NCBI RefSeq assembly: GCF_041248615.1
Contig: NZ_CP158425.1
Direction: 5' to 3' (one strand)
From: Escherichia coli
Lineage (GTDB): Bacteria > Pseudomonadota > Gammaproteobacteria > Enterobacterales > Enterobacteriaceae
Length of the DNA stretch: 64,000 nt
Made by a program: the position numbers. Within the stretch, counting starts at the first letter, position 1. Every line of letters starts with the position of its first letter. This document shows, piece after piece, positions 18,001 through 27,000 of this stretch.

Positions 18001-21000
18001 CATAAACGGACGTTGTAAGTTTGATGGCATCAAGCCGGAATGGTTATGTATGGGGATGGACGATTTTATCCATAAAGTCAAACAACGACGAGGGCTACGG
18101 TTGTTCACACCGGAGTCTGTTCAGCACATCTGTTCGGTGTTGAAGTCAACAAGGAAGTCGCCAGGGCTCTATACGGACCTTACTCATATTCACAACATAA
18201 CGACAAAGTACAAAGCCCCGATGAAATTCGAGCAACGAGTAACATACATTCTGCTCAACTTTATCCATTATCTGTGGGCAAGTCTGTTCACTAAGCAGAA
18301 GCCTTAGCGCTCTATCATTGGTAAGGCTGTAAAATGTCTGCAAAAGGCCCCATCGGTAAATTGTTGGGGCTTTTTCTTTGCGTAGTTCTGATACGGTTTA
18401 TCCTGTGGAGCATTATGGCCACCAGCCAGCTGGTGACTGGCCAACGCTTTGTATGACGTAGCCTACTCAGGGCAGGCTATTTTAGAGGGACCGATTTTTA
18501 TCCGGGCTAATTTAGAAAGAGATAATTTGAACTTAGGCGGGCTGACCACCAGCAGAGAGGTAAATCACTAGCCGGTGATATTGACAGAAGTCGTCAGGGG
18601 TTTAACGCCGGAATATTTTGCCAGGCCTCCTGCAAGGTCTGCAAGACTTCTACAAGTGATAGTGACGGCCACAGGACTGTTTCCGTCATTATCACTCCAG
18701 GTGGCTCGCACTCTACTGGTACCAGAATTAAAACAACACGAGTTCCTTTTACCTGGTAGGCAAGGTTTACTGCCGGTTGGCGGTAGGAGGCCAGTACACC
18801 CTCACCATATTGAGCAGGGTTACTTGCCCAGTTCCGCACCATTGCATACACCTGAGGCATATACCGACTATCCAGATCCCCTTTGGGCCGTCTGAACGGC
18901 ACGATTTCTTCTGAGCGGTAGGTGGTCGTTGTTGTATTGGTTGTCATCTTTGTCACCTCCCCTGTTCGTCCATTTAGAGTTTTAAGCTGCTTTACACATC
19001 ACACTCAACTGATTATTTAAGCTGGTCATCGTCTCTGGCCAGCATAGCCCAACCATTCGACTGGTTTTCGCGGGAGTAAGGATTCATTTCAAAATAACTA
19101 TCTACCGCGTCGCTGTCCGCAACAGAACTGTTGTTAGCTCTCTTTGAACCCTGAACCACTACAGCATCAACCTCTGCGGCTTTCCCGTTGCGCTGTACCA
19201 GGATTTTAACCGTCTTGGGCTTACGTCTTGCGAGCAGTTTGTTGGCGATAAAAAGCACAACAATCCAGGCCAAAAGCACGTATAAAAATTTATTCATAAT
19301 GCCCTCCTTTGTATGTGATTATTATACCTGCTTCCATTGCAGGCCAAACAGGTTCGGTGTATGAAAAATAGACTTCTCTCCGGCGTATAGCAATCTACTT
19401 ACTGATCTGTTTTCGTATCAAACTGTATGGCATAACCGAGGGGCGTACGTGGTGAGTCAGAAAGTTACTTTTCCGTAATAGTTAATTTCAGATCCTTCTT
19501 CCAGTTACGCTTCAGTATAAAACCGATACCCTCTAATTCAGCATCCTTCACGTTTAATACGCTTCACTTTAAGGCAGGGCTTTTCGGTTGATATGAATTC
19601 TTTTTCCGGTTGCTGGACATGGGTTTCATCCTGATAGTTAAAATTGCAGGCTATCAGTCACCACCACCACCTCCTCCTCCTCCTCCTCCACCGCCACCAT
19701 CACAACCACCAGCTATGCTATTTTCACCATTACAATCACCTCCGAGGGGGTTCAAATGGCTGCTCCCCTGTAGATGGTGTCCTTGCCAGATCGAACCCGA
19801 ACCAGCGCCTCCTGAGCGTCTTTGCTTGCCCTGAGGCAATTGTGCAGGCTCACCAGCACCGGCGGTCCCAAAAATGTCCCGGGCAATTTTATAAAGAAGG
19901 TAAAAAGGTACGCCCAGCATCATAAAAAAGATTACTGAAAATATTACACGTTCCATTGATGATCTCCTGTCTTGTGAGAGACCAGTTATATCAGGGTGAT
20001 TCAGTATTTCCGTTTAGAAAAGAGTACTAATTTGGCCCTGTTCGATCTTAATTTGCCATCCGGGAAAAAGTCATAGGGATAGGCCTGCCAGAGTCAATAA
20101 CTTCCAGTGATCTGGAGGAGACCCCGGCTCTCTGAGCCCTCATGGATGGTACGGCTTTACCCCCTGTAAACAGATTCACGTTCCGCAGGACAAACATCGA
20201 CTACTGACGTCTCATATTTGCTGACGCTAATCCGACGTCTCATTGCCGTCTGCTTGTTTTCTTTAAAGGGTGTATTAGACGAATATCAAATCGGAATGGT
20301 AGGGGATGTGTGGGCACCATGCCCGGCCCTCTTTGAGCATCTGAGAGATTGGAGACCTAGCCGGGTAAGATAGCTACTTTCTTACGGGTTACCCTTCAAA
20401 TCCAAAGACGAAACGGACGCTGCCGTTCTCCACGTGGAGACGCTTTACTTCTTCGACAAATTCCTGGATCACCTCTCCGGCGTTATCGGGTGGTATGGCT
20501 GACAAAATTTCTTCCGAAGTCAGCCATGAGTATGAATGTTCACCGAATAAATCATCATCTTCGGACGGTATATCATCAGGTAATCCGCGTAATGCGTGGA
20601 TAAAAACTGCTGATGTGCTCGCCCTTTCACGATCTACATCAAATCCGAGCCAGGCAAAGTGGAGATATGATCGGTCCCCTTTATAATTGCTTGATAAATT
20701 AATCCATTTACCAGGCTTTTCTTCCCTTTGAAATCGCCAGCAGATATCAACGCCCATTAAGAAACTCCATTACTATCGTTCGTATGAGATAACTATCATT
20801 TCAGAATACTATGACTTCTTCCCGTATAGAACTAATCGCTCACGCCAACTGGGCGAAGCCAACCGGTTCCGCCACTTCGCTCATTGGTTTTTAGGCGTAA
20901 GCACTGAAGCCAGTCTCCATGCTAACTGGCGAGCCTGCGAAAGTCAGACTCGTTGTTATAAAGCGGCATATCGTAAGCGGTGTCTGAAATGAACATGCGG

Positions 21001-24000: not shown

Positions 24001-27000
24001 GTGAAGAGTTCTGCTTTTGAAGCGCTACCGCGAAACTCTTCGCAGCGAATACGAGTAATGCGTTCACGCCCTTCTGCTTCCAGCTGGCGGTTTGCAATAG
24101 CGATGGAACGGATACGGCAAGCCCCCTGACGCAGTACAGGTACGCCATTAACCATCTGAACAACGATAGGCGTCACGCTGAACGGGTCTTCCATGTAGGC
24201 ATCGGCCAGGCTGTTCAGGTGTTCCACAACGTGAGGCATTGAATAGTAGAGCTCGCCCATACCGGCCGTGCGGGTGTTAAAGCCTTCCTGCTCTACAACA
24301 ACCGAAGGGTCAATGATAAGGCCGTTGCCTTTACGGGCACCGTTACCAGTGCGTTCCAGGTAACCACGAAGGCTGATTTCGTTGCTGTTGTTTTTTACTT
24401 CAGTTTCGATTGCGGACATTTTTGTTCTCTTTTTTGGTTGGTTGTTTAACTGCGCTACAACACAACAATACCAGGTTCGACATTTTTCCTAATAGGTTGC
24501 GGAGAAGAAAAAGTAACTTTTTTTAAAAATTTTCCTGAGGCAATACTACTCGATCCGTCCGTTTTAAATCTTCACAACAGTGGGCCGTTTTTACGTTTAA
24601 GCAAAATAACTGGTTCAGAAGGTGACTCAGAGAGAAAAGTTACTTTTCCGGTTGTCTGGGCCAGTGATGGGAGAGTGGCAGGACAGGAATGGCTAAACCG
24701 GTGCGGGTCTCTTGTAAGTCGCAGGGGATTCAGGAGATATAGAGGTAAACTGGTACGTTCAGTTTTTGGATTGAGCCGGGCTTTTGGCCCGGGCTTAAGG
24801 AAGCAGAAATTTGAACGAACTGGCAGGTAATGCTTTATGCCGCCGACAGCTGGCCGTCAGTGCTTTGCTGTTCTGGTTTGACAGTTGGGGGATAACCGGC
24901 AGTTAGCCGCTGGCATTCCGCATCACAGAAAGCCCTGAGGTTGCTGAAGACGGACTCCATGAAATCAGCATGAGCATACGAGTCTACAGGACGTGTCTTG
25001 TTATCTTTCATCTTGTTCTCCTCAATCATTATTAAAACCAGCGGATTTAGTTTCTGGCGCTCCATCTGCTGACCGGCTTTCCCAGAGAGCAGCGATGTGT
25101 CGGGTTCTTTTTCTCATTTTATCGTTTTCATCGGGCCCATCCGGGCGTATAAGAGACCGATTTGGCATGTTTAGGAAACGTACTGGCGTAATTAAAAGCT
25201 GAGGTTGGATTTGGAATAAAAGGATGCTTTTCCCGTTTGTCGGGTCTTTCGCCACCGCTGCACGATGATTCTGTCAGGCATTCTGCGCCCTCCCAGGCTG
25301 CACATCTGGAAACAAGCGTTGGGATGTTCCCTTCCCCTGCTCACCGTAGAAAGATCGGCAAGTCCCGACGGTCGTTCCGTACGAGCCGGGTCCAAATAAT
25401 GAATAAATAAAACGCCGCTTCAATTGTATTGACAATAGAAGTCAGGAGGATCATAGTGTCATTCATGGTGCGGCTTTCGCACCACCGCCCCGGCGGTACC
25501 GGGCAGAACTGGAGTACCTCATGAAACTTTCCCGTCAGACGACTTCTGATACTTCTGTTGATGGCCGTTCACGCGCATATGCCTGGGGCCGTGTCCATTA
25601 TTTCATTATCGAACATGCACCAATGGCTGAGCTGGTCGCTATTGACGAGCTGCTGGAAAAAGCTGGCTGGAGCAATGACGGCTGTCCGAACTATGAGAAA
25701 GATGACGAGTTTGGTAATGCTGGTTACAGCTGTGGTTACTGGATCGATATTGACAGCGTGGGAAGCTTCAAGGCTGACTACAAACGTCTTAAGGGGGAGA
25801 TTAGTGCGCATATCGCCTCAAAGGCGGCAGAGGTGGAGATCCGCGTACTGGACTCGATGTCCGACAAAGAATGTAAAGATGTTGCCTCGGTGGCATCTAC
25901 TGTTCGCCGTGACTTACGTACGCAGTCCGAATCGCTTCATTCACTGCGTACAATCGTAACGGTTGATCATTACAATCCCTATGTGACCACCAGCCGCCCG
26001 CTGAGCATTTCCGCCTGGACACTTATCCACGACTGTCTGAAAACAGGCACCATCAATGACGTCTGTTCACGGTTGAGTTCATTAATCCTGCACTCTGAAG
26101 CCGCGATTGCCCGTTGTAAGGGAAGCTCCGACTACTCTTCGGAACACGCTCAGCTATCGTTTTTTGCTGGTAACGACTATGTCACCAGACGCACCCTTGT
26201 TGATGCAGCTCACGAAGAGGCTCTGCGAATGAACCGCCGCTTTGATGAACGCATTGCAATGAACGCGGATTCTGATGCCAGAAGGCTCCAGTGCGAATTC
26301 AACCTTAGCAACCATGTCGTACAGCGTAGGACCGTTGAATCTGCTCATATCCAGGCACTCAATGAAGACGTCACCCGTTCACAGGCGGAACCACGCTGCC
26401 CTGGAAAGCTTCTTCTGAATATGACCAGTCATGAGGAAGTGCGGGACTCACTGAGCGCCTGTTAGTCCAGCGACACCCCCTGCGGCTCTACTACCGGGCC
26501 GCAGTCTGCTCCTGCCCAGATGGTGCCAGTGGTGTAATGAATTTGTTTAATAAGGCTAAGTATGATGAATAAAGAACAACTAATCGACAAACTGGAACGC
26601 GTGGTATGTGGTCAGTACTCCTACGAAATGCAGGAGCTTGCGTATTCGGCCCTCTGCTGCATTAAAGGCACCCCGGACGACTGCGCTAAGTTCCCTGTTA
26701 CGCGTCCGCTGCCTGACACCTTAGTGGACGTATGGGACGAAATCGGGCAATACCTTGGCACAGGCAAAGCCATTGAAACTCGCAGTTGCGGCGTTTCGCT
26801 TCTGCTTCATGGACACTGCTACGATTCAAATCATGTGCTTTACTGGCGCAATGCTGGCGCACTTCCAGCAGCTTGCGATACGCCACTGGCTGGTGGGTCT
26901 CGCAAACTGTTCACCTGCTCAGCCTGTGGAGTGGACGGTCTGGATGAACCACCTGAAACCAGTTGCCACTGCTGCACAGAGGGGGCCCACTGGGTTGAGA

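Follow-up and report, generated by a model that had tools for sequence, protein, structure and literature searches.

The 64,000-nucleotide stretch analysed here (one strand, in the following called the window) belongs to Escherichia coli contig NZ_CP158425.1 and is part of an IncHI2 plasmid, being 100% identical to positions 160001–224000 of the E. coli plasmid record p14408_M1 (NZ_LT599829.1; 238 kb, IncHI2A, MOBH relaxase, MPF_F). The plasmid carries mcr-1.1, and the studied region is matched by more than 1,000 plasmid records. The subject of this study is a minus-strand gene for an orphan ParB-like protein, termed ParB-like-1, together with the 11-bp palindrome AAAGTWACTTT, two copies of which lie upstream of it. 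In typhoid, multidrug resistance is carried by IncHI1 and IncHI2 plasmids, as is mcr-1/mcr-9 colistin resistance in Enterobacterales. The greater part of the IncHI backbone is still annotated as 'hypothetical', and little is understood of its global regulation apart from H-NS/Hha and TrhR/TrhY/HtdA; neither the motif nor a ParB-like regulator of IncHI plasmids was described in the literature searched. According to a recent preprint (10.1101/2025.04.03.647016), it is also unclear by what means R27-type plasmids become established in a new host in the absence of recognised anti-defence genes. Plasmid-wide counts given below refer to the whole NZ_LT599829.1 record, window counts to the 64-kb stretch. 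The gene and its two upstream sites are placed in the window as follows.

23235–24419, minus strand: ParB-like-1, 394 amino acids (aa), WP_001272970.1, head gene of a seven-gene array
24510–24520: proximal site AAAGTAACTTT (13-bp form AAAAGTAACTTTT), 90 bp upstream of the ParB-like-1 start codon
24636–24646: distal site AAAGTTACTTT, 216 bp upstream of the ParB-like-1 start codon

The first-pass annotation of the window had recorded two AAAGTWACTTT copies upstream of the gene. Both are present, at 24510 and 24636, and they are not a local pair, the word being spread plasmid-wide. Sixteen exact copies were counted in the window versus 0.06 expected, a number reached in none of 100 shuffles, and 44 on the 238-kb plasmid. 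One-mismatch variants were fewer than exact copies (23 versus 44), the opposite of what neutral decay would lead one to expect. AAAGTWACTTT was by far the most repeated backbone word in a k-mer census, and the only other repeated backbone family was that of the RepHI2 iterons; when a second dispersed motif was sought by the same census for the two paralogs of ParB-like-1 described below, only these iterons were returned. The copies are confined to the conserved backbone, and none lies in the resistance/insertion sequence region (107–152 kb of the plasmid). The 6-1-6 form of the palindrome, AAAAGTWACTTTT (13 bp), is frequent. Since the flanks of the copies share no similarity except A/T at −1/+1, the copies are to be regarded as sites and not as copies of a mobile repeat. 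The remaining 14 copies in the window are the following (oriT, origin of transfer).

4423–4433: intragenic in trhH, nucleotide 29
7483–7493: oriT/divergent tra promoter region, about 77 bp upstream of a gene starting at 7406, which probably opens the trhR-type operon
7968–7978: about 187 bp upstream of mobI (relaxosome operon)
12829–12839: intragenic in traD, offset 289
14559–14569: intragenic in traD, offset 2019
19461–19471: at the head of the following minus-strand unit, about 165 bp upstream of the gene starting at 19297
31629–31639: intergenic, about 140 bp upstream of the minus-strand gene starting at 31488
35149–35159: intergenic, about 150 bp upstream of the minus-strand gene starting at 34997
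37880–37890: intergenic, about 130 bp upstream of the minus-strand gene starting at 37747
42929–42939: intergenic, about 205 bp upstream of the minus-strand gene starting at 42722
47141–47151: intergenic, about 170 bp upstream of the minus-strand gene starting at 46970
52345–52355: intergenic, about 135 bp upstream of an Ig-like protein gene starting at 52209
58062–58072: intragenic in a second Ig-like protein gene
60286–60296: intergenic, downstream of the Ig-like gene and by the RepHI2 iteron field

Twelve of the 16 window copies are intergenic in a window that is itself 23.8% intergenic (p = 2e-5). Plasmid-wide, the 42 copies other than the two at ParB-like-1 lie mostly 80–220 bp upstream of the first genes of successive operons, and 17 of all 44 are intragenic. 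The operons so headed include an 'establishment-type' small-gene array, the oriT region and tra operons, of whose six promoter regions four carry a copy. In the long minus-strand small-gene array, copies stand 80–220 bp upstream of the first gene past each larger gap (19461, 24510/24636, 31629, 35149, 37880, 42929, 47141, and 52345) and appear to punctuate successive transcription units. A promoter-like TTGATA-18-TAGATT is found about 40 bp downstream of the copy at 19461. Between the divergent tra operons, the copies at 7483 and 7968 stand on either side of the probable oriT region; outside the window, htdT, trhF, the parM-divergent operon, and others are preceded by copies.

The positions of the copies are conserved. 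The two IncHI2 lineages compared differ by 3.6% across 24420–25520; in the R478-like lineage the proximal site is intact, with its flanks mutated at 24501/2, 24522, and 24530–32, and the distal site is intact between the lineages with changes nearby at 24626 and 24629. The copies in traD (offsets 289 and 2019) and trhH (offset 29) occupy exactly the same positions in IncHI1 plasmid pHCM1 and in IncHI2. At 73% nucleotide identity, these 11-mers are kept including their synonymous positions, and the central W alone varies: the traD 289 copy is identical in sequence in IncHI1, and the traD 2019 copy differs at the central W only. In an unbiased palindrome census, AAAGTNACTTT was the top palindrome on all six contigs with a ParB-like-1 ortholog, IncHI2 included. 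The other five contigs, with the identity of the ortholog and the length scanned, are listed here.

pHCM1 (IncHI1): ortholog 65%, 9 copies in 22.6 kb
Leclercia-type contig: ortholog 50%, 5 copies in 21 kb
Yersinia intermedia contig: ortholog 44%, 7 copies in 21 kb
P0037 contig: ortholog 36%, 3 copies and a one-mismatch copy upstream of the gene, in 21 kb
Klebsiella virulence plasmid: ortholog 35%, 17 copies in 41 kb

The spacing of the sites upstream of the ortholog start codon is also similar, namely 90 and 216 bp in IncHI2, 94 and 213 bp in IncHI1 pHCM1, and 98 and 199 bp in Yersinia, and on the Klebsiella plasmid five copies within 870 bp upstream of the ortholog form its densest cluster. 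The motif was absent from four contigs (IncC and three others) whose only subfamily members are more distant ones. The oriT region, too, has conserved paired sites, judging from 7483/7968 in IncHI2, three motif copies in the oriT region of IncHI1, and a pair in Pluralibacter. The latter was seen on a Pluralibacter gergoviae MOBH contig (3633–3745), where the interval between a trhR-like gene and a mobI/relaxase operon holds two copies spaced by about 90 bp. A scan of genome contigs for paired sites matched 73 stretches, mostly chance occurrences in AT-rich genomes and repeat arrays; three of the 73 were enterobacterial, and one of these proved to be an oriT region and not a ParB-like locus.

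The membership of the head gene in the ParB family, proposed from the sequence, was borne out. A hidden Markov model check gave Pfam HTH_ParB (PF17762) with 26.6 bits versus a cut-off of 22.6 (E 7e-6), PHROG 1033 'ParB-like partition protein' matches aa 24–255 (E 1.6e-21), and PDB sequence matches include the Caulobacter ParB DNA-binding domain; Pfam ParB_N gave no match in the protein. The AlphaFold2 model has a predicted local distance difference test score of about 90 over aa 16–255, and residues 1–12 are predicted to be disordered. The top Foldseek match of the model was KorB of RK2 (8qa9, template modelling score 0.66 normalised to the target), and further matches were cytidine triphosphate (CTP)/CDP-bound ParB and Noc (7ol9), the matches having E 4e-8. 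The domains were delimited as follows.

aa 16–140, approximately: ParB/CTPase-type fold
aa 147–209, approximately: helix-turn-helix (HTH)
aa 256–320: acidic/Pro-rich disordered linker of 65 residues, between the HTH region and the C-terminal element
aa 321–394: helix-strand-helix

The C-terminal helix-strand-helix is conserved subfamily-wide and, as modelled, probably constitutes a dimerisation element. Alignments comprised 17 orthologs and 26 subfamily members (MAFFT). A 'GFNTR' element is invariant among the aligned subfamily, and G99-A-C-R102-I-R104, within a conserved element R-Q-G-x-C-R-x-R, aligns with G77-E-R-R80-F-R82 of B. subtilis ParB. G99 and R102 (GxxR) are invariant in 26 of 26 sequences. 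The first-pass annotation had suggested a DNA-clamping factor or a nuclease. As GxxR is retained, the fold can reasonably be read as that of a DNA-clamp-type protein, and binding of a nucleotide is plausible from the alignment; a nuclease is without evidence, as no nuclease motifs or matches were found.

At E ≤ 0.001, 254 proteins match ParB-like-1 in a library of 1.84 billion representatives. All relatives examined are orphans located in arrays of small genes that run on one strand, and near them are found ArdA, PsiA, RdgC, H-NS, methyltransferases, or UmuC. Two more orphan paralogs are encoded on the same plasmid, at record positions 232168–233331 (minus strand, 387 aa, 32% identity; paralog 2) and 236542–237597 (minus strand, 351 aa, 26% identity; paralog 3). 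The recognition helices differ among the three (KSEQHLRQ, KSPTTISS, and RSTTAIRN). A further orphan subfamily member is found on the IncC plasmid pNDM10505 (26412–27350, 312 aa, 32% identity), 3 kb upstream of parA-parB(KorB domain)-053 and distinct from it.

The statement that no ParA gene adjoins the head gene, and that the locus is unlikely to be a classical partition cassette, was supported. No ParA is annotated within the window, and none was found next to orthologs and distant homologs of ParB-like-1. The 394-aa sequence lacks (L|F|I)G[KR]G(L|F|I), defined as the N-terminal ParA-binding motif in PMC12704722. The plasmid has a ParA/ParB pair of its own at record 15974–18228, which together with ParM/ParR spans record 15974–23021. 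The partition ParB is P1-type (PF08775) and an unlikely binder of the palindrome, since it has its own repeat array by parA and no motif copy occurs in record 7134–19052. This array, a 3.1-kb ORF (open reading frame)-free stretch at record 12504–15594, consists of 12.6 repeats of 249 bp directly upstream of the type Ia parA. The repeat consensus contains GATTTAAC and TCGCCA, the latter similar to P1 parS box B, and it is probably this array that acts as the true centromere of IncHI2 ParAB.

ParB-like-1 and its sites could nonetheless serve mainly in DNA organisation or segregation, as accessory centromere-like sites or in compaction or positioning, and not in transcription. The 17 intragenic sites with kept position are unexplained by transcription control alone, and IncC partition uses 14 dispersed parS sites (PMC10954446). 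A basic peptide SL(R/K)xL (aa 14–24 of ParB-like-1) precedes the ParB fold throughout the subfamily, at the position where canonical ParBs have the ParA-stimulating motif LG(R/K)GL, and a link to ParA might go through this peptide. We consider a segregation role improbable: besides the lack of an adjacent ParA and of the canonical ParA-binding motif on a plasmid already equipped with ParAB and ParMR, the sites are strongly enriched upstream of operon starts, and a natural variant without the gene is still maintained.

KorB, the closest structural match, has the operator TTTAGC-S-GCTAAA. Its ParB-family fold is shared by ParB-like-1, and its 6-1-6 palindrome is repeated near promoters and in genes, including a copy upstream of its own operon; it has 12 operators on RK2 (IncP RK2/RP4) and exerts global, long-range control (PMC11790492). 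A site set of this kind exists on the IncHI2 plasmid and flanks the gene of ParB-like-1, the putative binder, for which control of similar reach would be expected. ParB-like-1 is remote from KorB in sequence and differs in boxes II and III; it has no match to the KorB domain PF08535 at E ≤ 0.01 (positive control IncC ParB, 1.7e-38), no IncC (ParA) or KorA operon partners, and 44 putative sites instead of 12. The Bacillus protein Noc (structural match 7ol9) is likewise an orphan ParB paralog without ParA, and its dozens of scattered palindromic sites have a counterpart here in the putative sites of ParB-like-1. Noc is chromosomal and acts in cell division via its membrane-binding N-terminus. 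A role or helix of this kind is not evident in ParB-like-1 (amphipathicity was not analysed), and its putative sites concentrate upstream of operons. IncC ParB (parAB053), from a related MOBH/MPF_F backbone, offers another dispersed ParB-family palindrome, with 14 parS sites of which one is at the par promoter (PMC10954446); unlike ParB-like-1, it is a ParA-linked partition protein with a KorB domain. Its site is TTTCACATGTGAAA with flanks, and eight copies were counted in the initial 50 kb of one IncC plasmid. On pNDM10505 (5680–33912), the eight copies in the first 50 kb read ACTTTCACATGTGAAAGT, one of them 62 bp upstream of parA, and correspond to the IncC parS (PMC10954446). The outer pentamers of ACTTTCACATGTGAAAGT, ACTTT and AAAGT, equal the arms of the IncHI motif in everted order, which may be coincidence.

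The 44 backbone palindromes are most likely the marks of a plasmid-wide control system that had not been described before. Of the ways in which it might work, we judge it an even call that a KorB/Noc-like, self-regulated protein, ParB-like-1, binds or loads at the palindrome and coordinates the backbone operons. AAAGTWACTTT would be its specific binding or loading site: dimers would attach to the palindromes, might then clamp shut in a nucleotide-dependent way and slide over a short distance, and would set transcription of neighbouring promoters, with repression as the most likely sign, as with KorB. The backbone would be quiet in an established host and would fire transiently upon entry into a cell without the protein. 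With two copies about 90 and 216 bp upstream of its own start codon, the ParB-like-1 gene would be self-regulated. As the binder, ParB-like-1 is favoured by being the one conserved gene adjoining a conserved site pair or cluster, by the compact 6-1-6 geometry that the palindrome shares with the KorB operator, and by the ParB-family precedents for dispersed plasmid sites, KorB and IncC ParB. The fuller proposal is put forward tentatively, with less confidence than its core: that IncHI-type plasmids (HI1, HI2, Klebsiella HI1B-like, and relatives) share a system in which about 44 sites, roughly one per 4–5 kb of backbone, serve to load an orphan ParB-fold protein whose catalytic residues are altered, and this protein silences transfer, establishment, and maintenance operons together.

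An 11-bp word under strong selection at 44 places, combined with an orphan ParB-fold protein, provides a concrete hypothesis for coordinated control of transfer and establishment genes. If it is true, it would make IncHI plasmids cheap to carry for established hosts and let expression surge upon entry into a new cell, with about three times more sites than are reported for RK2 KorB (12) or IncC ParB (14). The two paralogs could then make up a small clamp family on one plasmid, and the system would be a natural addition to the ParB-CTPase-fold switches outside segregation. ParB-like-1 differs from the known orphan ParB-fold regulators KorB, Noc, VirB, BisD, and HerB in sequence subfamily, catalytic residues, lack of partners, number of putative sites, and the presence of paralogs. 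Independently of its binder, AAAGTWACTTT could serve as a marker of IncHI-type backbone DNA.

The same pairing of protein and sites could act with the opposite sign, ParB-like-1 then freeing AT-rich backbone promoters from silencing by H-NS/Hha, as an anti-silencer of the VirB type. VirB of Shigella pINV and BisD of ICEclc, compared here by description, are orphan ParB-like expression regulators on mobile elements, VirB being CTP-dependent (PMC12704722). IncHI plasmids encode their own H-NS and Hha, and the sites lie upstream of likely promoters and not over them. VirB and BisD use few sites, in the case of VirB a handful and not 44, and KorB-type repression or loading would more typically go with paired autoregulatory sites and with intragenic ones. 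An anti-silencer is therefore held to be slightly less probable still than a role in segregation.

Several observations weigh against KorB/Noc-like control by ParB-like-1. Residues of the type that ParB uses for hydrolysis are changed (E78 to A or H, R79 to C, and box III 'ENxQR' to 'GNSN'); the box III segment reads T-G143-N144-S-N, and Asn alone is retained in the MAFFT alignment, the only method by which it was placed. With these residues replaced, CTPase-clamp behaviour is uncertain and, from the sequence, nucleotide hydrolysis is doubtful. No sigma-70-like promoter could be confidently placed relative to the two upstream sites. The IncHI2 variant pCFS3292-1 (NZ_CP026936.2, 192 kb, non-mobilizable) has no ParB-like-1 match and no relaxase region and keeps paralogs 2 and 3, so the protein is not needed for replication or maintenance. 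Among the distant subfamily members, no exact palindrome reached at least three copies in three 21-kb contigs, and the IncC orphan homolog also has the H-x-R recognition-helix pattern, yet IncC lacks the motif. A covariation test is powerless, as the motif is invariant among relatives down to 35% protein identity. Finally, two paralogs of the same subfamily and many conserved backbone proteins would co-occur with the motif equally.

The last point leads to the strongest competing explanation, in which the palindrome is a real plasmid-wide operator bound by another backbone protein, and the ParB-like-1 gene is one target among many. Either ParB-like paralog, a transfer regulator of the TrhR/TrhY/HtdA type, or an unrecognised repressor would be candidates. 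Co-occurrence does not distinguish among backbone genes that move as a block, paralog 2 has a one-mismatch copy, AAAGGTACTTT, 81 bp upstream, and copies stand in most tra promoter regions and as oriT pairs in several lineages. Nevertheless, among the three ParB-like genes ParB-like-1 alone has exact copies upstream, the recognition helices of the paralogs differ, and neither the geometry kept in three lineages nor the Klebsiella cluster fits this view well. Moreover, the compact 6-1-6 palindrome suits a KorB-type DNA-binding domain, and the 44 sites reach far past the transfer genes. A different binder is thus rated as unlikely, though likelier than segregation or anti-silencing.

The seven minus-strand ORFs of the array that ParB-like-1 heads were confirmed at the positions predicted for them, and all are hypothetical proteins in RefSeq. 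The six genes downstream of ParB-like-1 are given here.

22888–23169, minus strand: gene 2, 93 aa; IncHI1 counterpart with 58% identity, none further out
22425–22703, minus strand: gene 3, 92 aa; variable
22008–22304, minus strand: gene 4, 98 aa; kept in IncHI1 and the Leclercia-type plasmid
21526–21963, minus strand: gene 5, 145 aa; kept in IncHI1, Leclercia-type, and Yersinia plasmids
20922–21464, minus strand: gene 6, 180 aa; RefSeq start at 21458; kept in IncHI1
20389–20757, minus strand: gene 7, 122 aa; weak PHROG matches, function unassigned

That they form one operon is plausible from the common strand, gaps of 44–184 bp, and the lack of a minus-strand terminator-like site in the intergenic gaps. 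One segment varies between lineages. Between about 22200 and 22890, the R478-like lineage has an unrelated gene of 233 aa (8950–9651 of the compared locus) in place of gene 3 and its flanks, while the neighbours are 89–100% identical between the IncHI2 lineages. By this sequence comparison, gene 3 is a cassette swappable between lineages. Genes 2 and 4–6 are common to IncHI1, and genes 4 and 5 are found at other places in other relatives; no downstream gene is kept adjoining ParB-like-1 beyond IncHI1/2. None of the six gave a family in Pfam, NCBIfam, or PADLOC, and PHROGs matched only gene 7, weakly.

The 1.1 kb upstream of ParB-like-1 (24420–25520) had been described as ORF-poor and as holding the two palindromes. 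Both lie inside it, whereas the region is not free of ORFs, since RefSeq annotates a gene of 58 aa. The features of this region are as follows.

24835–25011, minus strand: small ORF, 58 aa, WP_001371930.1; GAGGAG ribosome-binding site 6 nucleotides upstream of the ATG
24771–24797, minus strand: GC-rich hairpin AGCCCGGGC/GCCCGGCT directly 3' of the 58-aa ORF; no T-run; tandem 13-mers
25012–25428: variable spacer lacking conserved features, 22 differences in about 350 bp between IncHI2 lineages; no IncHI1 homology
25429–25457, plus strand: predicted sigma-70-like promoter TTGACA-17-CATAGT, assigned by consensus match alone (10 of 12), facing the divergent DUF5417 gene (25521–26465)

No substitution separates the two IncHI2 lineages in 24834–25052, where the flanks differ by about 6%, and the 58-aa protein is identical in the second lineage; family searches gave no match for it. 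The hairpin was not called by a terminator scan and is possibly, from its sequence, a weak terminator or a stabiliser of an RNA end. The most variable part between the IncHI2 lineages is 25100–25450, and the only block conserved with IncHI1 is 24453–24569, which holds the proximal site. A consensus scan found no minus-strand sigma-70-like promoter for ParB-like-1, and candidates chosen by eye proved too weak to be put forward.

The first-pass annotation had proposed that this region may encode a regulatory RNA or a long leader, and that the protein may be a leading-region nuclease; as part of this reading, a host-directed factor similar to HerB/YfjB was considered too. The gene content of the array does resemble a leading region, with hok/sok, methyltransferases, PsiA, and ArdA on this plasmid or its relatives, and gene content and orientation are compatible with that status. 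HerB/YfjB of the F leading region is also an orphan ParB-like protein among small establishment genes, with a CTP-binding fold and an HTH (PMC13370423). The RNA was not supported: an Rfam scan of 18–30 kb returned only sok (28398–28556) and a sub-threshold Mu-gpT-DE, folding was no better than that of shuffles (z −0.3 as RNA, −1.2 as single-stranded DNA), and conservation is poor. Frpo-like single-strand promoter hairpins were likewise unsupported, the inverted repeats found being only weak and long-range. HerB, set apart here by description, is larger, with subdomains at residues 545–625 and extra domains past residue 577, binds the host chromosome, and has no identified binding motif (PMC13370423); its dimerisation module is separate. 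ParB-like-1, with 394 aa, has a short C-terminus, and its gene is linked to a specific motif spread over its own plasmid. With the nuclease reading also lacking motifs and matches, this explanation is regarded as very improbable.

Three further features of the window were recorded. A hok/sok type I toxin-antitoxin locus occupies 28242–28556 (minus strand), with an Rfam sok match of 81 bits at 28398–28556 and Hok annotated at 28242–28361. Sixteen copies of GACAAYGGYAGTGA, in both orientations and many about 81 bp apart, lie at 60869–62004 and 63992, flank repHI2 (62261–63349), and are the RepHI2 iterons. Finally, an annotated gene of 100 aa at 19654–19956 (minus strand) has about 12 glycine codons at its end (a CCN repeat on the plus strand); in the other IncHI2 lineage the ortholog has 99 aa, one codon fewer, pointing to a glycine tract of variable length.

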